Source: Clostridia bacterium
GTDB lineage: Bacteria > Bacillota > Clostridia > Oscillospirales > CAG-272
Direction: 5' to 3'
Length of the DNA: 22,474 bases
Assembly (NCBI GenBank): GCA_017504545.1
Contig: JAFVRA010000072.1
Coordinates: 1-22,474, forward strand
Within the stretch, counting starts at the first letter, position 1, and every line of letters begins with the position of its first letter. The notes below the pieces were generated by a model. It made no database searches and was not told the DNA's origin. It was given only the letters and a program-made list of their open reading frames with translations. Position numbers and translations under genes: made by a program. Below are positions 5,111 through 21,485 of the stretch, in pieces.

Positions 5111-5123
5111 TATCTAACACACG

Positions 5124-5171
5124 GTAGGGGCGAACTGTGTTCGCCCGCGGGCGTTCACAGAACGCCCCTAC
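5124..5171. repeat. REPIN-like doublet A: two inverted copies of a 23-nt GTAG-headed hairpin
   Basis: Unit 1 (5124-5146) is GTAGGGGCGAACTGTGTTCGCCC. The reverse complement of unit 2 (5149-5171) is GTAGGGGCGTTCTGTGAACGCCC. The only differences are AA/TT swaps that keep each 8-bp stem paired. Confidence 0.6.
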
Positions 5172-5600: not shown

Positions 5601-5672
5601 GTAGGGCGGGGGTTTACTCCCGCCTTGTTGGCTTAGATCCTATGTTACGGCGGGAGCAAGCCCCCGCCCTAC
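5601..5672. repeat. REPIN-like doublet B: two inverted 24-nt GTAG-headed hairpins separated by a 24-nt spacer
   Basis: Unit 1 (5601-5624) is GTAGGGCGGGGGTTTACTCCCGCC. The reverse complement of unit 2 (5649-5672) is GTAGGGCGGGGGCTTGCTCCCGCC. There are 2 differences, both in the loop. Confidence 0.6.
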
Positions 5673-8694: not shown

Positions 8695-8723
8695 ATTATA
8701 TCATAATATTTTCACTATTTCAA
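8695..8723 (-). promoter_or_regulatory. Sigma-A-type promoter for glpK
   Basis: On the minus strand this reads TTGAAA (8718-8723), a 17-nt spacer, then TGaTATAAT (8695-8703). Confidence 0.55.
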
Positions 8724-8729
8724 TAGTGA
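8712..8729. promoter_or_regulatory. Perfect 8-2-8 palindrome overlapping the glpK -35; candidate operator
   Basis: TCACTATT-TC-AATAGTGA. The -35 hexamer (8718-8723) sits at its centre. Confidence 0.35.
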
Positions 8730-8761
8730 GATTTATCAGCTGAAAAATAAATGAAAATATA

Positions 8762-8790
8762 TTGCAATGAAAATAAAAAAATGTTATAAT
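8762..8790 (+). promoter_or_regulatory. Near-consensus sigma-A promoter upstream of the ABC operon
   Basis: TTGCAA (8762-8767), a 17-nt spacer, then TGtTATAAT (8782-8790). The predicted TSS is near 8797, which leaves a 5-prime leader of about 90 nt. Confidence 0.55.
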
Positions 8791-8806
8791 AAATTTAAGA
8801 AAATCA

Positions 8807-8886
8807 TGTAACCTTTTGAGAAAAATTACGACATATAATATAGAGGCACAAGTACCCTCGCCTTTAGTAAACGAAAGGAGATAAAA
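8807..8886 (+). promoter_or_regulatory. Conserved upstream module, copy 1 (before the ABC operon)
   Basis: TGTAACCTTTTGAGAAAAATTACGACATATA...GGCACAAGTACCCT...CGAAAGGAGA. The gapless alignment of 8806-8859 with 14505-14558 gives 43/54 identities by hand count (core 29/31). Confidence 0.5.
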
Positions 8887-11202
8887 ATGTCTTTACTTAA
8901 GCTCAGGGATATCGGCAAGATATACGTTTCGGAGGGATCGGTAGCGGTCGGTCTTCGCGGCGTCAATCTTGATTTCGATATCGGTGAATTTATTGCCGTA
9001 ACGGGCAAATCGGGAAGCGGTAAGACCACGCTTCTCAATATGATAAGCGGTATGGATACCTACGAGGAGGGAGAGCTCTATATAGAGGGCGAGCCCACCT
9101 CGCATTACGATCAGCTCGAGTGGGAGAACTATCGTAAGAAGTATATATCGTTTATCTTTCAGGAATACAACATAATCGACAGCTTCACGGTGCTTCAGAA
9201 CGTTGAGCTTGCGCTTTCTTATATCGACTCTCCGAGTGAGAGGCGCGCAAGAGCGCTTGAGCTTATCGAGCGCGTAGGTCTTACAAAATTCAAGAACCAC
9301 AAGGGCTCTAAGCTCTCGGGCGGACAGAAGCAGAGAACGGTCATCGCGCGTGCTCTCGCAAAGGACAGCCCAATAATTCTTGCCGACGAGCCTACGGGAA
9401 ATCTTGACGCTAAGACCTCTGAGGAGATAATTGCGCTTCTTGCCGAGATATCCAAGGATAAGCTCGTTATCGTGGTAACTCACACGGTAGAGGAGCTCCA
9501 AAAGTATGCGACGAGAGAGATAAGAATATTTGACGGTACGGTTGAGCGAGACGAGACGCTTCGCAAGGCAGAAAAGAGATCGACGGTCGATATAAGCGAG
9601 AAGATCGCAAAGCCGCACAATATCAGGCGCGGAATTGAGCTTGGCTGGCAGAGATTTCGCTCTATGCCAAAGCTTTCGGTGTTTATGTGCGCTCTTATGG
9701 TGCTTGCAATACTCGGCACCTTCTTCTCAACTCTGCTGTTCTCGGTGGATCTTGAGACGTCGTATCCCATTTTCGTCCACAGAGACGGCAGACTCGTTAT
9801 CACCCGTCAGGACGGCAGTCCGATAACCGACGATGAGCTTAAAGCTCTCGCAGAGGAGCTTGATGCAAAGGACTTCTGCCATTATGATTATCTTTACGAT
9901 TCGTCCTTCGGCGTGAATGATATATCAGATACGGGCAACCACAGATTTGCACAGGTCTACGCCTACGTTGACGACGGAAGCGTGCGTGCGACTGTCGGAC
10001 ACGAGCCCGAGAACGAAAACGAGGTAATGCTCTCTCTTCCGATAGAGTGGCTCTTGGTGTACGGTACGTCGCTTGACGAAGAGGACACTATCAAGCTCGG
10101 CGGCAGGACCTACACTATTTCGGGAGTACACTACTATCTCGACAATACCAAGACGGGCAGGGCGATATTCAGCGAGGAAGGCTTTGAGGAGTGTATCGAC
10201 TCTAACTTCATAAACGGCTATCAGTTCGGATTTATTTCTCTTACCCCGAGATTTGCTACCGACACCGCTCTTTTTGACTACGTGACGAATATCTATATAG
10301 ACGATACGCTCGGAGAGAACGAATGTTACTTTACAAGCACCGACTACAGGACTATCGAGAACATCAAGGTCGCGGCAAGAAAGGAAAATATAGACACGGC
10401 CGCTCTTACCTTTGACTTTAATAAGAACAGCAAGACGGGTATGTCTCAAGGATTTAGCTATCCTTACGGTGACGCTAAGATCAACCTTGACAGATGCAAG
10501 GTTGTTACAAGCAGCAATGATACCCCTTACCTTGAGTACGATTACGGCTACAACGGCGGTATCGTCTACGAGGACGTTCTCATCGTCGATAAGTACGCTC
10601 CCAACGGCTCGGTAGATATTTATATCTCGCGTGATATAGCCGACGCTATGTTTGAAAACCTCAGAGAGCCCAACTATATGCAGGCATCTCTCTTCTTTGG
10701 CAGCGACTCGCGCGCAGAGAAGGCGGCAGAGGAGCTTCAGGACAAGGGCTATTTCACGATGCTCTCAAGCCATACCTACGAGAGAGGCGAGGACATCATA
10801 CTCTCGCTCTTTATAAACATCTTTATGATAGGCTTCTGGCTCGTAACTCTTCTTTTCTTAGGACTCTTCCTCTACGTTTGCTCGGCAAGAGCGATAGTTG
10901 CCAAGAGAGGCGACATCGCGATACTTCGCTCAATGGGAATCGAGAATAAGGTCATCAAGATATCTATGTACGCGCAGACGGCAATAGCGATGATACCTTC
11001 ATTCGTTGTGCTCTTCTTTACGGCTGTGTTGATCTACACGTCGCCGTGGCTCAACCCGATGTTCCCGTTTATGCACGCGCATCAGTACGCGCTGATACTT
11101 CTCGGAATGGTGCTTATAAATCTTTATATCTCGAGAAAGTATAACAAAAAGATGTTCAAGGAAAGCGTCCGCAAAACTTTGAAGGGAGGAGCTAAGGAAT
11201 GA
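8887..11202 (+). CDS. MacB-type ABC transporter, fused ATP-binding domain and FtsX-like permease (771 aa)
   Basis: Walker A is GKSGSGKTT, the signature is LSGGQKQR, Walker B is ILADEPTGNLD and the H-loop is VTHT. TM1 lies near aa 262-285, followed by an extracytoplasmic domain of about 350 aa (ENEVMLSLP...IKLGGRTYTISGV, MacB periplasmic-core-like). Three C-terminal TM helices follow. An AAAGGAGA RBS is present. Confidence 0.85.
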   Translation: MSLLKLRDIGKIYVSEGSVAVGLRGVNLDFDIGEFIAVTGKSGSGKTTLLNMISGMDTYEEGELYIEGEPTSHYDQLEWENYRKKYISFIFQEYNIIDSFTVLQNVELALSYIDSPSERRARALELIERVGLTKFKNHKGSKLSGGQKQRTVIARALAKDSPIILADEPTGNLDAKTSEEIIALLAEISKDKLVIVVTHTVEELQKYATREIRIFDGTVERDETLRKAEKRSTVDISEKIAKPHNIRRGIELGWQRFRSMPKLSVFMCALMVLAILGTFFSTLLFSVDLETSYPIFVHRDGRLVITRQDGSPITDDELKALAEELDAKDFCHYDYLYDSSFGVNDISDTGNHRFAQVYAYVDDGSVRATVGHEPENENEVMLSLPIEWLLVYGTSLDEEDTIKLGGRTYTISGVHYYLDNTKTGRAIFSEEGFEECIDSNFINGYQFGFISLTPRFATDTALFDYVTNIYIDDTLGENECYFTSTDYRTIENIKVAARKENIDTAALTFDFNKNSKTGMSQGFSYPYGDAKINLDRCKVVTSSNDTPYLEYDYGYNGGIVYEDVLIVDKYAPNGSVDIYISRDIADAMFENLREPNYMQASLFFGSDSRAEKAAEELQDKGYFTMLSSHTYERGEDIILSLFINIFMIGFWLVTLLFLGLFLYVCSARAIVAKRGDIAILRSMGIENKVIKISMYAQTAIAMIPSFVVLFFTAVLIYTSPWLNPMFPFMHAHQYALILLGMVLINLYISRKYNKKMFKESVRKTLKGGAKE

Positions 11203-13931
11203 TCAGGATAGATAAGCTTAACAAATATTACGGCAACCGAGGCGCAAATCAGGTGCACGCCGTAAACGACGTTTCTATTACTCTCCCCGATAGCGGCATG
11301 GTCGCTATCTTCGGTAAATCGGGTTGCGGAAAGACTACGCTTCTCAATATGGTGGGAGGTCTTGACAAGGCAAGCTCGGGTGAGGTGCTCATTGACGGTA
11401 AGAAGATCACCCCCGACTCCGACAGCGCGAGAAATCTCAAGGTCGGATATATATTCCAGAATTACAACCTCTCCGAGAGAATGAGCGTTTACGATAACGT
11501 TGCGGTCTCGCTCCGCCTTTGCGGTATGACGGACGAAGCCGAGATAGAGGAGAGAGTTCTCGCGGCGCTCCGAAGCGTTGATATGGAGAAATACCGCAAG
11601 CGTCTGCCGACGGCTCTCTCGGGCGGTCAGCAGCAGAGAGTTGCTATTGCAAGAGCAATAGTGAAGAACCCCTCGCTCATCCTTGCCGACGAGCCTACGG
11701 GCAACCTTGACGAGCAGAACACGGTCATGGTTATGGATCTTCTCAAGTCGCTCTCGCGCGACAGGCTCGTGCTTCTCGTCACTCACGAGGCGCATCTCGT
11801 TGACAGCTATTGCGACAAGGTGATCGGTCTCTCTGACGGAAAGATATTTGAGGAGAGAGAGAACAGCGTAACCGAGGGCTATATTGGCAAGAAGGCAAAC
11901 GAGGTCTATCTTGGCGATATGGAGCGCGACGAGCTCTCGGACGGAGAGCTTACCTTTGAGTATTACGGCGACCGCGAGAACAAGCCGACAAAGCTTCGCA
12001 TCATCTCCTCGGGCGGCGTGCTTTACGTCTCTGCCGATGACGACGTCAAGCTGAAGATAGTCGATAAGTCCTCCGAGCTTATAGTTCACGAGGGCAAGTA
12101 TACCGAGAAGCCCAAGAGCGAGCCAAAGGAGCTTCCGTCTGAGCTCAAAGCTCCGATACCCGAGGGCAAGAGCGGACGGCTCTATAATTTCAAGGGCGCA
12201 CTCAAGAGCGGATTTAACAGCAACTTTGCCAAGAAGCGCAAGAGAAAGATACTTCTTATACTCACTATGATGTGCTTTGCGGCGATAATCGTATTCGTCG
12301 TAGGTCTTTTCGGTGCGGCGATATATAACTTCTCGACGGTTGAGCAGTATTTCAACTCAAACGTAGTAGGCGTTGACGCCAACGATATGAGCAACGAAGA
12401 GGCAAGGGAAGTAGTGAGCAGGGGAGACGCCGAGCTTTTCGTGATCAGCGGAAGCTTCAGCGAATATCGTCCCAACGTTCACGATTATCTCAATTTCTCG
12501 TTTGGTAGCTACGATACCGCATCCTACGGCATCCGCTACGATAATGCGGGAAGTGAGAACGTGCAGGCTCTTCCGATCTCTCTGCTTGAGGGCAGAAGAC
12601 TGCTTGCAGGCAGTGACGAGATCAAGGCTGAAAACGAGATCATTATCACCGCTGCGGTTGCAGACACCATAATAAAGGCGATGGGCAATTCCAACGTAAA
12701 GGAATACGAGGATCTTATCCACGCAAACGTCTCGCGCGGCGGCAGATACGGTTACTATTACGACGGTATGGATATGATATCCCCCGGCGGCAGAGCGCAG
12801 AACAGTAAGCTCAAGGTCGTTGGCGTAGTGTCGGGCTCTGACGAGGAGGCTTTCTACCACGAGTACACCTATTTGCAGAAGACTCTTACCGATCTTTACG
12901 GCGTAAACGCGGGATATTTCTCGGATCTTGAGCATTCGGGCTTTGACCTTCCCGCGCTTGAGAACGGAAGCGTGTACACCCTTGAGGGCTACTACACCTA
13001 CGGCGGCTATGAAAAGACGGTCATTGGCGGTGAAAGCTACAGAGTTGCCGACACTTACGAGGTCACCGTGACAGATGAGATGTTAAGTCAGCACTGCAAA
13101 GATTACTACGGCTACGATCTTACCGAGGGCGTTGAAGCGTATCTCAGATATTACTACGGCCTTAACAGCTTTGAGGACTGGGCGGCAACTTACTACGGCA
13201 AGGAGGGGCTCAGCAAGGAAGAAGCGAAGAACCTTCTTGACTCGGAGTATCAGTCGTTTATGGAAAGAGCCAAGGTAGAGTGCCTTATGCGCGAGGGAAA
13301 CAACGTTCCTAAGGTAATAATGACGCTTGAGGATATGAAGCGAGTGGCTACCTCCTACTCGATCGGCAAAGACTCCGAGGGACTTACCTCGGGCATCTAT
13401 CAGGGCGGAACCTACGTCTTTTATTCAAAGGATGCGAAGGCGCTCGGCGAGAGCATGATCGAGAAATACGGCGAGGATAACGTGATCACACCCAAGTCCT
13501 CTCGCGACTATTTGCGCGCAGAGTATTACGGCACCTTCGTATCTCTCACGGTAGTTCTTATAGTCGTCAGCGCGATAATGTCGCTCTGTCTCTACTTCAT
13601 CATGCGCTCGTCTCTTATGGGGGACATCAAGGAGGTCGGAATCAGCCGCGCTATCGGCGTAAGCAAGAGAAATCTCTCCTACAGATATCTTATTGAGACG
13701 CTGATGCTCTTTATTATGACTATCTTCGTAGGATTCCTGCTCTCAAGTATACTGATGGGACTTCTCACGAGCCTTATATCGACTATGGGTATGCTGGTCT
13801 ACTACCCGTGGTGGCTCGGAATAATCACGCTTATAGGAATAATCATCATCACCGTGATATGCGGACAGATGCCTATACGCTCGCTTCTTCGCCGTTCACC
13901 CGCGGAGATACTTGCAAAATACGATATCTAA
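11199..13931 (+). CDS. MacB-type ABC transporter, fused ATP-binding domain and FtsX-like permease (910 aa)
   Basis: Walker A is GKSGCGKTT, the signature is LSGGQQQR, Walker B is ILADEPTGNLD and the H-loop is VTHE. A cytoplasmic linker of about 120 aa precedes TM1 (near aa 350-375). An extracytoplasmic domain of about 400 aa follows (ENEIIITAAVADTI...KLKVVGVVSG), then three C-terminal TM helices. An ATGA overlap with the upstream gene (11199-11202) implies translational coupling. Confidence 0.85.
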   Translation: MIRIDKLNKYYGNRGANQVHAVNDVSITLPDSGMVAIFGKSGCGKTTLLNMVGGLDKASSGEVLIDGKKITPDSDSARNLKVGYIFQNYNLSERMSVYDNVAVSLRLCGMTDEAEIEERVLAALRSVDMEKYRKRLPTALSGGQQQRVAIARAIVKNPSLILADEPTGNLDEQNTVMVMDLLKSLSRDRLVLLVTHEAHLVDSYCDKVIGLSDGKIFEERENSVTEGYIGKKANEVYLGDMERDELSDGELTFEYYGDRENKPTKLRIISSGGVLYVSADDDVKLKIVDKSSELIVHEGKYTEKPKSEPKELPSELKAPIPEGKSGRLYNFKGALKSGFNSNFAKKRKRKILLILTMMCFAAIIVFVVGLFGAAIYNFSTVEQYFNSNVVGVDANDMSNEEAREVVSRGDAELFVISGSFSEYRPNVHDYLNFSFGSYDTASYGIRYDNAGSENVQALPISLLEGRRLLAGSDEIKAENEIIITAAVADTIIKAMGNSNVKEYEDLIHANVSRGGRYGYYYDGMDMISPGGRAQNSKLKVVGVVSGSDEEAFYHEYTYLQKTLTDLYGVNAGYFSDLEHSGFDLPALENGSVYTLEGYYTYGGYEKTVIGGESYRVADTYEVTVTDEMLSQHCKDYYGYDLTEGVEAYLRYYYGLNSFEDWAATYYGKEGLSKEEAKNLLDSEYQSFMERAKVECLMREGNNVPKVIMTLEDMKRVATSYSIGKDSEGLTSGIYQGGTYVFYSKDAKALGESMIEKYGEDNVITPKSSRDYLRAEYYGTFVSLTVVLIVVSAIMSLCLYFIMRSSLMGDIKEVGISRAIGVSKRNLSYRYLIETLMLFIMTIFVGFLLSSILMGLLTSLISTMGMLVYYPWWLGIITLIGIIIITVICGQMPIRSLLRRSPAEILAKYDI

Positions 13932-13946
13932 CAGAGGAATTTTAAA

Positions 13947-14480
13947 ATGGTGCTTCAGAAAGGACGCCCTGCGGACACCGCAGGGCGACTTGAAAAGGAA
14001 ATACGCTCGTACGATCTGCTTGATTCTCTTGGAATAGAGTACGACAGGATCGACCACGAGCCTGCAATGACTATGGAGGTATGCGAGGAGATAGACAGAG
14101 TGCTTGGCGCTACTATCTGCAAAAATCTCTTTCTTTGCAACAGACAAGAGACCGACTTTTATCTGTTGATGATGCCGGGCGACAAGCCTTTCAAGACGAA
14201 AGACCTGTCATCCCAGATAGGCTCGTCTCGACTTTCGTTCGGCAGTCCTGAGTATATGGAGCAGCTCGTTGATATAACCCCCGGCTCGCTCAGTATTCTC
14301 GGACTTATGAACGACAAGGAGGGCAGGGTGCGCCTGCTTATCGACAAGGACGTGCTCTCGGGCGAGTATATCGGCTGTCATCCGTGTATAAACACCTCGA
14401 GCCTCAGAATTAAGACCTCGGATATGGTCGAGAAGCTTATCCCCGCGCTCCGCCACACGCCCACGCTCGTGGAGCTTTAA
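13947..14480 (+). CDS. YbaK/ProX-like aminoacyl-tRNA trans-editing domain protein
   Basis: 177-aa ORF of the size typical for free-standing YbaK/ProX proteins. It has the CKNLFLCN...FYLLMMPGDK block (the conserved Lys-containing KNLFL motif) and GCHPC. It starts 15 nt after ABC-2 with an AGAGGA RBS. Confidence 0.7.
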   Translation: MVLQKGRPADTAGRLEKEIRSYDLLDSLGIEYDRIDHEPAMTMEVCEEIDRVLGATICKNLFLCNRQETDFYLLMMPGDKPFKTKDLSSQIGSSRLSFGSPEYMEQLVDITPGSLSILGLMNDKEGRVRLLIDKDVLSGEYIGCHPCINTSSLRIKTSDMVEKLIPALRHTPTLVEL

Positions 14481-14505
14481 AATTTTAAAAAAGTTTTATA
14501 AAACG

Positions 14506-14581
14506 TGTAACCTTTCAAGAAAAATTACGACATATATAGTGAAGGCACAAATGCCCTATTTGTCATCGAAAGGAGAACAAA
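14506..14581 (+). promoter_or_regulatory. Conserved upstream module, copy 2 (before the serpin pair)
   Basis: TGTAACCTTTCAAGAAAAATTACGACATATA...GGCACAAATGCCCT...CGAAAGGAGA. See copy 1. No hairpin terminator separates it from the preceding proX-like gene. Confidence 0.5.
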
Positions 14582-15895
14582 ATGAAGAAAATAACTCTTT
14601 CATTGATAAGCGCGCTTCTTCTTTGCGCTATCGCAATAAGCTTTTTTGGATGTAACTCGATGGAAGCTACAGACTTGATGGAGGGAATAACTCCGAACGA
14701 GACGCCGCAAAAGCCCTCTCCTAAGCCTCCTACGGCATCAGGAGATCCTACCGACAAGCCTCCCGTCTTCGACGAGCCTACTACTTTGAAGGCTGCCGAT
14801 AATGCCGCCGCTACAGATTTTGCGCTTCGTCTCTTTAGGGCGAGCAACGAAAAAGGCAAAAACACACTCATCTCGCCCCTCTCGGTGCTTTGCGCACTCT
14901 CTATGACCGCAAACGGTGCTAAGGGAGAGACGAGAGAGCAGATGGAAGCTACTCTCGGAATGCCTATAGAGGAGCTTAATCTTTATATCTCCAACTATAT
15001 GAATAGCCTCCCTAATACTGAAAAGTACAAGCTTCATCTGGCTAACTCTATCTGGTTTACAGATGACGAGCGCTTTACGGTAAATGAAGACTTCTTGCAG
15101 ATTAATGCCGATTATTACGGCGCAGGTGCGTACAAGGCTCCGTTTGATGACTCCACGCTTGAGGATATCAATAATTGGGTGAAGAAAGAGACCGACGGAA
15201 TGATCCCCAAGGTGCTTGACGAGATACCGCCCGAGGCAGTTATGTATCTTGTTAACGCGCTTGCTTTTGAGGCTGAGTGGGCGGAGATCTACAATGAATA
15301 CGCTGTTAGCGACGGCACTTTTACTAAAGAAGACGGCACGAAGCAGAGCGTTGAATTTATGTACAGCGACGAAAGCACATACCTTGAGGACGATAAGGCT
15401 ATCGGCTTTAAGAAGTACTACAAGGATAGGAAATATGCCTTTGTGGCTCTGCTGCCCAACGAGGGTGTCAGCGTTGACGAGTATATCGCCTCTCTTGACG
15501 GCGAGTCGCTGAACGCGCTTCTCAGTAACGCTAAGAATACCTCTGTATCCGCAAAAATGCCGAAGTTTGAGACGGGATATGACGTAGAAATGTCAAAGGT
15601 GCTTCAATCTATGGGTATGATCGACGCGTTTGACGGAAATAAGGCAGATTTTTCTGGTATTGGTACTTCAAGTGCGGGAAATCTTAGGATAAATCGCGTA
15701 ATACACAAGACCTTTCTATCGGTTGCCGAGAAGGGAACAAAGGCAGGTGCGTCAACTGTAGTTGAGGTTACGGATGAGTCTGCTCCTATGGAAGTAAAGC
15801 GCGTATTCCTCGACAGACCTTTTGTGTATATGCTCGTTGACTGCGAGAACAATCTTCCGTTCTTTATAGGAACGATGATGGACATTGAGAAATAA
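14582..15895 (+). CDS. Serpin (serine protease inhibitor) lipoprotein, paralog 1
   Basis: 437 aa with a signal peptide ending in the lipobox-like FFGC (Cys24) and a Pro/Thr/Lys-rich spacer (aa 38-68). The serpin hinge is EKGTKAGAST and the C-terminal signature is FLDRPFVYMLVD...PFFIGTM. Confidence 0.9.
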   Translation: MKKITLSLISALLLCAIAISFFGCNSMEATDLMEGITPNETPQKPSPKPPTASGDPTDKPPVFDEPTTLKAADNAAATDFALRLFRASNEKGKNTLISPLSVLCALSMTANGAKGETREQMEATLGMPIEELNLYISNYMNSLPNTEKYKLHLANSIWFTDDERFTVNEDFLQINADYYGAGAYKAPFDDSTLEDINNWVKKETDGMIPKVLDEIPPEAVMYLVNALAFEAEWAEIYNEYAVSDGTFTKEDGTKQSVEFMYSDESTYLEDDKAIGFKKYYKDRKYAFVALLPNEGVSVDEYIASLDGESLNALLSNAKNTSVSAKMPKFETGYDVEMSKVLQSMGMIDAFDGNKADFSGIGTSSAGNLRINRVIHKTFLSVAEKGTKAGASTVVEVTDESAPMEVKRVFLDRPFVYMLVDCENNLPFFIGTMMDIEK

Positions 15896-15925
15896 GTCGA
15901 ACGTAAGGCTTTGAGGGAGAAGAAA

Positions 15926-17182
15926 ATGAAAAACAAAAAATTTTATCTTAGCATATCTGCCTTGTTGCTTCTGTGCGCGATGCTGTTTAATATCGTTTCC
16001 TGCACTAAAGTCAAGGCTGCCGATCTTATGGAGGGAGTGACTCCGAGAGAGGTAGAAGTGCGCGAGGAGCTTAGCGAGGATAATGCCGCCGTTACAGATT
16101 TCGCGCTTCGTCTTTTTAAGGCGACTAATGCCGGTGGCAAAAACACGCTTATCTCGCCCCTCTCGGTGCTTTGCGCCCTCGCAATGACGACTAACGGCGC
16201 TAAGGGAGAGACGAGAGAGCAGATGGAAGCAACGCTCGGAATGAGCGCCGAGGAGCTCAATCTCTATCTTTACTCGTATATGAACTCCTTGCCGACGGGT
16301 GAGAAGTATAAGCTTAGTCTTGCAAACTCGATCTGGTTCAGAGATGACGAGAGATTTACGGTAAACGAGGATTTCCTGCAGACCAACGCCGATTATTACG
16401 GCGCGGGTGCATACAAAGCGCCCTTTGATAAATCTACCAAGAAGGACATCAATAATTGGGTAAAGGAAAATACCGACGGAATGATCCCCGAGGTGCTTGA
16501 CGAGATACCGCCTGAGGCAGTTATGTATCTCGTTAACGCGCTTGCATTTGAAGCCGAGTGGTCTGATATATATAAAAAGACTCAGGTGCGCGACGGCACT
16601 TTTACTAAAGAGGACGGCACTAAGCAGAGCGCTGAGTTTATGTATAGCGAAGAGCACCGTTATCTTGAGGACGAAAAGGCTACGGGATTTATGAAGTATT
16701 ACAGAGGAAGCAAATACGCCTTCGTAGCGCTTCTTCCCAACGAGGGTGTAACCGTCAAGGAGTATTTGAATTCGATAGACGGAGAGGCTCTTAGCGCTCT
16801 CTTGTCAGCACCGAAGGGGAATTCAGTACAGGCTGCAATACCGAAGTTTGAGACCGAGTACAGCACCGAGATGTCTGAAATACTCAAGTCTATGGGAATG
16901 CCGCTCGCTTTTGATGAGGACAATGCAGATTTCTCGGGTCTTGGCAGATCAAGCGCGGGAAATATATACATCAGCCGCGTGATACACAAGACCTTTATCT
17001 CGGTAGCCGAGAAGGGAACGAAGGCAGGCGCGGTGACTGCTATTGAAATGGATGGTAAAGGCGCGAGCGACCCCGACGAGACCAAGAGAGTATATCTCGA
17101 CAGACCATTCGTTTATATGCTCGTTGACTGCGAGAACAACATTCCGTTCTTTATAGGAACGATGATGGATATTGAAAAGTAA
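15926..17182 (+). CDS. Serpin (serine protease inhibitor) lipoprotein, paralog 2
   Basis: 418 aa from the ATG at 15926, with a GAGGGAGA RBS at 15913-15920. The ORF-track TTG at 15911 overlaps that RBS. The lipobox is IVSC, the hinge is EKGTKAGAVT and the C-terminus is YLDRPFVYMLVD...PFFIGTM. It is roughly three-quarters identical to paralog 1 by eye. Confidence 0.9.
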   Translation: MKNKKFYLSISALLLLCAMLFNIVSCTKVKAADLMEGVTPREVEVREELSEDNAAVTDFALRLFKATNAGGKNTLISPLSVLCALAMTTNGAKGETREQMEATLGMSAEELNLYLYSYMNSLPTGEKYKLSLANSIWFRDDERFTVNEDFLQTNADYYGAGAYKAPFDKSTKKDINNWVKENTDGMIPEVLDEIPPEAVMYLVNALAFEAEWSDIYKKTQVRDGTFTKEDGTKQSAEFMYSEEHRYLEDEKATGFMKYYRGSKYAFVALLPNEGVTVKEYLNSIDGEALSALLSAPKGNSVQAAIPKFETEYSTEMSEILKSMGMPLAFDEDNADFSGLGRSSAGNIYISRVIHKTFISVAEKGTKAGAVTAIEMDGKGASDPDETKRVYLDRPFVYMLVDCENNIPFFIGTMMDIEK

Positions 17183-17196
17183 ACTTAATGGAAAAG

Positions 17197-17226
17197 AAAA
17201 AACGGCTGAGAGATCAGCCGTTTTTT
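17197..17226. terminator. Bidirectional intrinsic terminator between the convergent serpin and minus-strand operons
   Basis: AAAAAACGGCTGA (17197-17209) pairs with TCAGCCGTTTTTT (17214-17226) around a GAGA loop. There is an A-run on one side and a T-run on the other. Confidence 0.8.
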
Positions 17227-17237
17227 CTATGCGTAAC

Positions 17238-17528
17238 TTATTTGCTTATGGGGGTGAGGACTTCGTTGTCCACGGTAATAGTGGGGGCGTCCTTTTCAAA
17301 GCGAAGGAGCGCCGCCGAGTCACCGAGGCGGAAGACCTGCTCGGTGCCCTTTAGAGAGAAGGGCTTCTCGCTTATGTCAAACTCGGTTCCGTCTATAGTT
17401 ACTATCGCCTTGCCGCTAAGATACGAGCAGGTAAGCGAGATAGTGTGAGTGAGCGTGTTGCCCGTCTCCTTGCCCGTTTCCATATCGGTCTCGGGCTCGC
17501 TGTATTCCCAGGTGTATTTTTTAGCCAT
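17238..17528 (-). CDS. Hypothetical small protein (96 aa)
   Basis: A GAGGAGAA RBS immediately precedes the ATG and overlaps the PHP gene stop (gap 10 nt). I recognise no motif, and the composition looks beta-rich. Confidence 0.55.
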   Translation of the reverse strand: MAKKYTWEYSEPETDMETGKETGNTLTHTISLTCSYLSGKAIVTIDGTEFDISEKPFSLKGTEQVFRLGDSAALLRFEKDAPTITVDNEVLTPISK

Positions 17529-20824: not shown

Positions 20825-21485
20825 AAATATCGCACCTCTTTTTTATCAAAAAATCCTCGCTTAGCGTAGGCGTAATGTCACCTTTTTTGCGGCAGACCGA
20901 AATATACGCGCGCGCGTCGCCAACGTTTAACGAAAAGAGAGAAAAGCCATAGCTCTCATCAAGCTTGTCCGCGCGGCAGATAGCCGCAAGTCCCTCGCCC
21001 GTTATCTTCGCGAGTGCCTCTTTTTTCGTCCAGAGGGCGAAGAAATCATCAAGGGGAGAGTTGCTCTCGGATAAAACTTTATGCTCGTCAGGGGCAAAAA
21101 AACGCCGCGAGAGCGAGAGAATATCCCGACGCTCGTCAATAAATTCAATATCTATGCCAACGGGTGTGTCCGATAGTGCCACCGCGACTATGTCTTTAGC
21201 ATGTGAGATGCTGAAGAATAGCTCTTGCGAGGAAAAATACGGCTTTCCCCCAGAAGTGCGGCAGATAGAAAGATCGTTCTGCGCTTCTTCCGACACAGTC
21301 AAAAGCTCGTGAAGGCAGAGAAGAGCAGAGAGCGAGCTGTTTTTGTATTCTTGATTTTTTATTTCAGAAAGGCGGAGCTTCTCGCCCTCACCAAAGGGAA
21401 GAGAAGATATGAGCGCGTCCGCGTCATCAAAAAAACAGGGTGATGGCGCGAGAATTATTTTGCAAAAATTCTTTTTTTGAGCCAT
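20808..21485 (-). CDS. Sfp-type 4-prime-phosphopantetheinyl transferase
   Basis: It has the [19 protein letters not shown] and [14 protein letters not shown] motifs. The start is set at the ATG at 21483-21485 (MAQKKNF...), which has a GAGGTGAG RBS. The 3-prime end overlaps the fumC start by 17 nt. Confidence 0.85.

Follow-up and report, generated by a model that had tools for sequence, protein, structure and literature searches.

Two transcription units in one stretch of Clostridia DNA, an ABC transporter operon and a pair of serpin genes, are preceded by nearly the same upstream module, which raises the question of what this module does and at which level it acts. The stretch, referred to here as the window, comprises 22,474 nt of contig JAFVRA010000072.1 from a Clostridia bacterium of the order Oscillospirales. 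An earlier note, made from the sequence alone, had pointed out the repeat and proposed a shared cis-regulatory element, working either as an activator-dependent promoter or at the RNA level. The genes downstream of the two copies and the end of the serpin unit are as follows.

8887-13931, + strand: two overlapping genes for fused ABC ATPase-permeases of the MacB/FtsX class, 771 aa and 910 aa (Pfam, NCBIfam)
13947-14480, + strand: YbaK/ProX-like tRNA-editing-domain gene, the third of the ABC operon (Pfam tRNA_edit; same position in loci L003, L005 and L007)
14582-17182, + strand: two serpin genes in tandem, at 14582-15895 (serpin-1) and about 15926-17182 (serpin-2) (Pfam Serpin, E 1e-89 and 1e-88)
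17195-17228, no strand assigned: bidirectional terminator hairpin ending the serpin unit (terminator scan, 15-bp stem)

The two ABC genes occupy 8887-11202 and 11199-13931. A Pfam ABC_tran domain was found in both products and FtsX in the second, and the best NCBIfam matches were ATPases of the MacB/LolD/FtsE type. The serpin-2 gene call was taken from L001, and the N-terminus of serpin-1 reads as a lipoprotein-type signal sequence (...FFGC). Exact-protein look-ups returned nothing on record for ABC-1 and near-identical contigs only for serpin-1. A terminator hairpin carries the sole Rfam match of the window, a sub-threshold one to BSnc120. No sigma factor or transcription regulator was detectable among the window genes, as the earlier note had stated, and a 170-aa open reading frame at 1524-2036 on the − strand, considered as a possible sigma or regulator gene, was without a family match.

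Realignment reproduced the similarity of the two copies. The 31-nt core, TGTAACCTTTnnAGAAAAATTACGACATATA, is identical at 29 of 31 positions (8807-8837 versus 14506-14536), and the gapless alignment of 8806-8859 with 14505-14558 again gave 43 identities out of 54. The best gapless 54-mer between both intergenic regions scored 44, whereas 200 shuffles averaged 28.5 and did not exceed 33, and the core written in IUPAC code had two exact matches in the window against 0.00 expected (100 dinucleotide shuffles). A repeat finder placed the pair in family D6, followed after a 4-nt length difference by family D15, which comprises the ribosome-binding site and ATG. The distances from GTAACC to the ATG, 79 nt for ABC-1 and 75 nt for serpin-1, were recomputed with the same outcome. 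A third full copy is indeed missing from the window, where the relaxed pattern TG[AT]AAC-N16/17-CG[AT]C gave two matches (0.25 expected) and the sole near-copy, at 20876-20905, has two mismatches, both at critical bases. Further details of the surroundings held as well: the hexamers TAATAT (8836-8841) and TATAGT (14535-14540) are present, a consensus scan recovered the near-consensus promoter at 8762-8790 (TTGCAA-17-TATAAT, with TG), and a terminator scan found no + strand terminator-like site at 13931-14582, between the YbaK/ProX-like gene and the serpin module.

To see which parts of the module are conserved, we located ABC-1 homologues at 77%, 74%, 63% and 59% identity, then retrieved and compared their loci. 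The same element precedes the ABC operon in three of these four lineages (L003, L005 and L008), and it also precedes the serpin genes where these follow. It is thus kept at orthologous loci. Conservation sets in abruptly at TGTAACC(T/A)TT, lapses in an A/T-rich stretch and returns at CGACATAT. The A/T-rich stretch is lineage-specific in sequence and constant in length, with CGAC always beginning 16 nt after TGTAAC, while the flanks of the motif and the hexamers TAATAT/TATAGT vary among orthologous loci. The conserved core is therefore bipartite, composed of TGTAAC-CTTT, a variable A/T-rich spacing of 16 nt and CGAC-ATAT.

The conservation of TGTAAC(C)TTT and CGACATAT at a fixed 16-nt spacing around a variable spacer led us to assign TGTAAC as the −35 and CGAC as the −10 of a promoter. 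The earlier note had reported no usable −35; in this assignment TGTAAC itself takes that role. Promoters of ECF sigma factors share an "AAC" in the −35 and have spacers of 14-17 bp. In many of them a T-tract next to the −35 (tgaAACnTTTt) contributes to function, and the autoregulatory sigX promoter of B. subtilis, which is specific to sigmaX, has CGAC as its −10 (Gaballa et al., PMC5758882). In the window, an "AAC" −35 with its T-tract lies at 8807 and at 14506, and both copies have the CGAC −10 at a 16-nt spacing. The promoter features are listed below.

8762-8790, + strand: P1, the sigma-A-type promoter of the ABC genes, TTGCAA-N17-TATAAT, its −10 extended by TG (10/12 consensus positions plus TG)
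8807-8817, + strand: predicted −35 TGTAAC and −35-proximal T-tract CTTTT of P2(ABC) (invariant in L003, L005 and L008; literature)
8818-8828, + strand: rest of the A/T-rich spacer of P2(ABC) (TGTAAC-to-CGAC distance 16 nt; sequence varies, length fixed)
8829-8836, + strand: predicted −10 CGAC and conserved ATAT extension of P2(ABC) (protein-found orthologues; upstream of protein-chosen sigma genes)
14506-14535, + strand: predicted P(serpin), with −35 TGTAAC at 14506-14511, T-tract, 16-nt spacer and −10 CGACATAT at 14528-14535 (before serpin genes in L003, L005, L054 and L075)

Judged from this anatomy and from the distribution described below, the module very probably represents two promoters read by one ECF sigma factor that would be encoded elsewhere in the genome. 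A literature search for ECF sigma promoters combining TGTAAC and CGAC returned nothing relevant. The sigma-A-type promoter is conserved separately: TTGnnn-N17-TGnTATAAT lies upstream of every ABC orthologue, including that of L007, which is without the ECF motif. The ABC operon therefore has tandem promoters, and the case of L007 shows that ECF control of the transporter is not universal. ABC orthologues with the same ECF-type promoter were present in at least five other lineages (L015, L018, L032, L051 and L069).

Because ECF sigma genes are usually autoregulated (PMC7826278), we scanned a genome collection with the motif to find the sigma gene. The pattern TGTAACCWTT-N12-CGACATAT was run against 185,579 species-representative genomes and gave 59 loci. 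Overall, 21 loci of relatives (11 + 7 + 3) have the motif 45-140 nt in front of an ECF sigma gene. In 11 Clostridia loci from the motif scan, an open reading frame of about 183 aa, starting M-E/D-D-x-x-I-V-D-L-Y-W, lies 45-120 nt downstream, and all five of these 11 that were tested by Pfam contained Sigma70_r2, Sigma70_r4_2 and Sigma70_ECF. The protein, of about 184 aa, has regions 2 and 4 and no region 3 (Pfam), as in group 4 sigma factors, and it scored 74.6 bits against the sigma70-ECF model TIGR02937 (cutoff 42.9). Its nearest solved relatives are the ECF sigma factors SigE, SigH and SigW. The element also precedes the sigma gene in contigs whose sigma is 95-96% identical to that of the MAG CALCTA01: TGTAACCTTTTGCGAAAAATTACGACATAT lies about 75 nt before the MEDFKIVDL start in seven of seven, with TTGACA-N17-TATAAT further upstream, the dual-promoter layout of the ABC operon. 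These seven contigs belong to the same metagenome series as the near-identical contigs of the window.

All 27 Firmicutes motif instances have a 16-nt spacer whose positions are low in information content; as the search pattern presets the motif positions in the collection-scan hits, this invariance is partly one of ascertainment, and it is the protein-found loci that lend independent support. Since the scans were conditioned on the motif, we performed a reverse test with sigma homologues picked by protein similarity only. All three distant homologues (79%, 62% and 60% identity) have the promoter upstream, as TGTAAC-N17-CGAC in L083 and as TGAAAC-N16-CGAC in L084 and L085, each followed by a semi-conserved AGAAG(G/C)C block. 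The promoter consensus reads TG(T/A)AAC-CTTT-N12-CGACATAT. In relatives, the motif is therefore located upstream of its cognate sigma gene, as expected of autoregulation.

The sigma gene opens an operon of conserved order, followed by genes for a single-pass membrane protein (+1) and a VWA/YfbK_C lipoprotein (+2). The +1 protein has 200-240 aa, and its start overlaps the sigma stop codon, so that the two are translationally coupled. A single transmembrane segment separates its short, conserved N-terminal helix (AIGEIDDRFIxEA) from an extracytoplasmic domain that is likewise conserved. Searches of Pfam, NCBIfam and PDB profiles revealed no similarity of the +1 protein to known anti-sigma domains; it is probably the anti-sigma factor. 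The +2 protein is a lipoprotein of about 540 aa with vWF_A, VWA and YfbK_C domains. In L084, the gene for the VWA lipoprotein runs directly into a serpin gene within the sigma operon, which links sigma and serpin by gene context, independently of the motif. We infer that the source genome of the window encodes the same sigma factor, its operon being known from a sister species (90% nucleotide identity) and from metagenome contigs of the same sample series.

These results bear directly on the activator-dependent promoter that the earlier note had proposed, in which TAATAT/TATAGT would form a −10 with no −35, and an activator (e.g. a BceR-like response regulator) bound at TGTAACC would recruit RNA polymerase. 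The −10-like hexamers do exist at 8836-8841 and 14535-14540, and FtsX-type ABC transporters in Firmicutes are often under two-component control. However, the hexamers are not conserved across orthologues and regulon members, while the G/C-containing CGAC is invariant. Conservation starts at TGTAAC, and the DNA before it is free of conserved repeats, direct or inverted: when 27 aligned instances were inspected for BceR-like or other repeat operators, only A/T tracts were seen. Furthermore, in 21 loci the motif goes with an ECF sigma gene, and it has no linked response regulator. A response-regulator-dependent sigma-A promoter, which would combine a conserved TAnnnT −10 with a repeat operator, was rejected on this basis, and we consider the activator reading improbable. 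What stands of the DNA-level proposal is a shared DNA element with its regulator outside the window; the anatomy of an activator-dependent sigma-A promoter does not, as the conserved parts are TGTAAC and CGAC.

The genes found behind the motif in relatives are consistent with promoters of an ECF regulon. In MAGs of Clostridia, Eubacteriales, Oscillospiraceae and Lachnospiraceae, nearly every match is co-oriented with a gene starting 45-120 nt downstream, L045 being the only exception among the Firmicutes MAG copies. The non-sigma genes downstream in the motif scan encode an ABC-1 orthologue in five loci, a serpin in one and a lipoprotein or membrane protein in three (146 aa; a 307-aa DUF4349 protein; 226 aa). 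A metagenome scan with a genus-tuned pattern added one ABC orthologue, one serpin and two lipoprotein genes. In CALCTA01, the closest reference genome, which has 90.4% nucleotide identity to window positions 8712-16733 (8 kb), there are exactly four sites, located before the sigma operon, the ABC operon, a serpin gene and the gene for a 146-aa lipoprotein, with the ABC and serpin sites spaced 5,689 nt apart. The same promoter type was also seen before MacB-type transporters in Bacteroidota. Taken together, the ABC and serpin transcription units share one cis-regulatory element acting at the DNA level, and comparison of these genomes indicates that a sigmaX-like ECF regulon of gut Clostridia most likely takes in a MacB-like ABC exporter pair and surface serpins.

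The resemblance of the two window copies extends beyond the sigma boxes, into the spacer (AGAAAAATTA) and GGCACAAnTnCCCT. The spacer and the 5′ UTR are more alike than recognition by a sigma factor needs, which points to a further cause, for instance shared descent, gene conversion or a preferred type of spacer. Part of the spacer likeness is a family-wide spacer style (T-tract, A-tract, T-tract), and part of the likeness in the spacer and downstream probably stems from common descent or gene conversion; in L005, both spacers have changed in parallel, which suggests copying between the sites. The extended likeness and the parallel change in L005 would also be expected if the module were a neutral sequence with no shared regulatory role, either left over from a segmental duplication or dispersed as a REP- or MITE-like repeat, and the genus does have true dispersed GC-rich repeats elsewhere, e.g. 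at window positions 5119-5151. However, the motif is kept at both sites between species even though their ABC protein is only 59-77% identical and the flanking intergenic DNA diverges. The copies in Firmicutes MAGs are, apart from L045, co-oriented with a gene start 45-140 nt downstream, and they number about four per genome, with no terminal inverted repeats. A REP or MITE assignment was rejected, given two copies in the window and four in CALCTA01, all in promoter position. Contrary to the dispersal over unrelated intergenic sites that the earlier note had named as a refutation, the extra copies in relatives are all at promoter position before a coherent gene set, which makes a neutral repeat hardly plausible.

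An RNA-level role, in which the module is transcribed from an upstream promoter or by read-through and acts as a leader, riboswitch, processing site or sRNA target, draws on the sigma-A promoter 45 nt upstream of copy 1 and the absence of a terminator before copy 2. Long transcripts containing the module therefore probably exist, and in these, pairing of CCUUU (the −35 flank) with AAAGG in the ribosome-binding site would be possible. Nevertheless, an Rfam cmscan of the whole window at E<=1 gave no match on either copy, and single-sequence folds of both modules at three lengths (z −0.7 to −1.9) were barely better than shuffles. RNAalifold of 12 modules gave −2.8 kcal/mol and a covariation term of −0.16, the only pairs being the invariant CCUUU:AAAGG ones. 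An ECF-driven transcript would not contain the CCUUU arm, which belongs to the −35 region, and the most conserved part of the module would sit upstream of the predicted transcription start. Two fixed boxes around a spacer that is constant in length and free in sequence typically mark a site where protein binds DNA, as opposed to a helix, and the motif precedes genes with quite different 5′ UTRs. With neither a covarying conserved structure nor a match to a known family, a cis-regulatory RNA was rejected, and the RNA-level proposal of the earlier note is scarcely credible.

Returning to the promoter reading, the sigma factor can be placed relative to known ones. A gene of Heyndrickxia sp. (Bacillaceae) that passes the NCBIfam SigX equivalog cutoff (272.8 vs 260 bits) has the exact motif directly before it, which makes the motif a promoter of the sigmaX type. 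The autoregulatory sigX promoter of B. subtilis and the sigmaX/M/V/W class share with it the AAC −35, the T-tract, a 16-17 bp spacer, the CGAC −10 and autoregulation (PMC5758882). The Clostridia sigma itself was rejected as a SigX orthologue, scoring 44.8 bits against NF007220 (cutoff 260) and passing only the general ECF superfamily model. Its system also differs from the sigX-rsiX operon and the sigmaX regulon, both in the partner genes (a novel single-pass protein and a VWA/YfbK_C lipoprotein) and in the regulon (a fused MacB-like ABC pair and serpins).

ECF sigma-dependent transcription is expected to start about 6-10 nt downstream of the −10. Setting the last C of CGAC at −10 gives the following predicted transcript leaders.

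8842-8886, + strand: predicted 5′ UTR of the ECF-driven ABC transcript, predicted start at about 8842 (±3), weak 5′ hairpin, ribosome-binding site AAAGGAG at 8874-8880
14541-14581, + strand: predicted 5′ UTR of the serpin transcript, predicted start at about 14541 (±3), hairpin GGCA-CAAA-TGCC at 14544-14555, ribosome-binding site AAAGGAG at 14569-14575

A semi-conserved block, (A/T)GA(A/G)G(G/C)C, with about 1 bit per position, was found at the predicted starts, and this coincidence was not imposed by the search pattern. The 5′-proximal hairpin of the ABC copy has a z of −2.4, but the mean over 27 promoters is only −0.86; hairpins are thus frequent and not universal, and we treat them as an ordinary 5′ UTR feature. 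The hairpin of the serpin copy is kept in L003, L054 and L075, while a GGCAC..GTGCC hairpin is intact in the ABC copy of L054 and degenerate in the window.

In the model that we propose, an extracytoplasmic signal would release the sigma factor, and RNA polymerase bearing it would then initiate roughly 10 nt past CGAC, at about 8842 and 14541. Besides its own operon, the sigma factor would in this way co-induce the genes for the MacB-like exporter pair, for the surface serpins and for a few small lipoproteins. In addition, the constitutive sigma-A promoter 45 nt upstream (8762-8790) would drive the ABC operon, and the serpin genes could also receive read-through from there. The likeness of the two copies downstream of CGAC would correspond to the start of the transcripts: first the semi-conserved GAAGgc block as the initially transcribed bases, then a short 5′ hairpin and finally a canonical ribosome-binding site. 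This likeness would reflect shared ancestry or gene conversion of the two promoters.

Several described systems resemble parts of this arrangement. Group ECF289 has a DUF3520-von Willebrand partner (Casas-Pastor et al. 2021, PMC7826278). It resembles the Clostridia operon by partner domain only, the +2 protein here carrying vWF_A, VWA and YfbK_C domains; it differs in that the VWA protein here is a separate lipoprotein at +2, with another membrane protein of about 230 aa at +1. YfbK_C (PF12034) is the former DUF3520. BceRS-BceAB-type modules likewise join an FtsX/MacB-family ABC transporter to a dedicated envelope-stress regulator and a specific promoter just upstream, but here there is no response-regulator-type repeat, ATPase and permease are fused in both subunits, and the regulator would be a sigma factor. 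As for serpins, that of Bifidobacterium breve is under a two-component system (Alvarez-Martin et al. 2012, as cited in PMC8201313). The likeness lies in a gut commensal placing a surface or secreted serpin under a dedicated, autoregulated envelope-signal system; there, a histidine kinase and response regulator exert the control, whereas here it would be an ECF sigma/(putative) anti-sigma pair, with an ABC exporter in the regulon. This serpin review does not mention sigma factors, and a literature search joining serpins and ECF sigma factors returned nothing relevant.

The composition of the operon and regulon also allows a more speculative proposal, which we put forward tentatively: the module of sigma factor, membrane protein and VWA lipoprotein might be a protease-sensing switch. 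Serine proteases of the host or of competitors would cut the anti-sigma factor in its extracytoplasmic part, or else its partner, the VWA lipoprotein, replacing site-1 cleavage, and the released sigma would induce lipid-anchored serpins that neutralise those proteases, together with the MacB-like exporter. This is in line with the presence of serpins in the regulon in several lineages, and inside the sigma operon in one, with the novel type of the +1 protein, and with the dedicated signal-transduction control of serpin expression in Bifidobacterium reported in PMC8201313.

The regulons of ECF sigma factors and their promoter logic are textbook material, and the mechanism proposed here would be only mildly surprising to a specialist. 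The novelty lies in the content: a fused MacB-like ABC pair and lipoprotein serpins appear to be controlled by a previously uncharacterised ECF system of Clostridia, whose +1 partner is unrecognisable and whose +2 gene encodes a VWA/YfbK_C lipoprotein. An anonymous repeat thereby becomes a testable regulon of uncultured Clostridia of the gut and rumen, and the MacB-type transporters behind the same promoter type in Bacteroidota hint at a widespread ECF-to-MacB wiring. Serpins of gut Firmicutes, the siropins for example, are inhibitors of human neutrophil elastase and proteinase 3, and a relevance to IBD is under discussion; to our knowledge, their regulation is essentially undescribed. The present results would tie the serpins of gut Clostridia to an envelope-stress-type regulator, and the promoter consensus may serve as a simple predictor of when, and alongside what, they are expressed. 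If the protease-sensing switch proved true, it would represent an ECF pathway whose direct input is the very activity that its output inhibits, and the serpins of gut Clostridia would gain their first described regulatory logic.

The sigma operon of relatives carries tandem promoters (L076:2100-2320 and L079:1530-1750), with TTGACA-N17-TATAAT first and the ECF motif second, a layout that mirrors that of the ABC operon. At both loci secG is divergent from the sigma operon. At L005, a locus with an ABC-1 homologue, the spacers of the ABC promoter (9128-9157) and of the serpin promoter (14837-14866) are altered alike relative to the window, to TTTTT[G/C]AAAAAAATA. This parallel change suggests that the two promoters underwent gene conversion with each other or co-evolved with the sigma factor.

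In both window copies of the motif, the -35 flank ACCUUU(U) is complementary to GAAAGG of the ribosome-binding site, through the following arms:

8812-8818 with 8873-8879, ABC operon
14511-14516 with 14568-14573, serpin unit

In transcripts that start at the upstream sigma-A promoter or arrive by read-through, this pairing might partly mask the ribosome-binding site, and ECF-initiated transcripts would be without its 5' arm. We regard masking as speculative because the pairing is both invariant and weak.

Two neighboring genes deserve mention. In the ABC operon, the gene in third place (13947-14480) encodes a YbaK/ProX-like aminoacyl-tRNA-editing domain, and it keeps this position at L003, L005 and L007. 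Functionally, it is an odd companion for an exporter. In one relative, a gene for a subtilisin-like Peptidase_S8 protein of 708 aa (L083:5190-7316, minus strand) lies ~2.7 kb 5' of the sigma operon; no motif was seen before it, and it may be relevant to the serpin/protease theme.

Further elements were found in the window:

5119-5151 and 5601-5672, intergenic palindromic GC-rich elements, ACGGTAGGGGCGAACTGTGTTCGCCCGCGGGCG...
17181-17279, minus strand, sub-threshold Rfam match to the Brucella sRNA BSnc120 (33.5 bits vs a gathering score of 114)
20876-20905, plus strand, degenerate third motif copy with 2 mismatches, TGTCACCTTTTTTGCGGCAGACCGAAATAT

In the genus, these GC-rich elements form a dispersed repeat of REP-like type, and sister genomes carry 100% identical copies of 29-33 nt at loci that are unrelated (L031 22-54; L079 231-263; L052 2670-2700; L081 1-29). 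The BSnc120 match coincides with a bidirectional terminator hairpin of 15 bp (17195-17228), placed between the serpin unit and a convergent 96-aa gene, and is most likely just this terminator. The degenerate copy is statistically unexpected, the chance expectation at ≤3 mismatches being 0.01. Both of its mismatches fall at critical bases (AAC to CAC and CGAC to CGAA), it lies antisense within a phosphopantetheinyl-transferase gene, and it is probably non-functional.

In Mucispirillum MAGs, the motif is located 67-78 nt 5' of genes for small proteins, namely secreted proteins of 137-140 aa (L014, L026) and a membrane protein of 168 aa (L040). No sigma gene was seen near the motif at these three loci.

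In Bacteroidota, 10 or more Dysgonomonas species, along with several Prevotella/Bacteroidetes MAGs, keep the exact form TGTAACCWTT-N12-CGACATAT, always with 'tgttaaaa' 5' of it. A MacB-type ABC operon, composed of one ATPase and two MacB_PCD/FtsX permeases, follows ~125-200 nt downstream:

L044:3838-7199 (Dysgonomonas mossii), motif and MacB-type operon, example locus
L010, L012, L023-L025, L042, L046, L048, L049, L055, L058, L060-L062, L064, L068 and L074, further loci with this arrangement

Thus a second phylum has this promoter type wired to the transporter class that it precedes in Clostridia.
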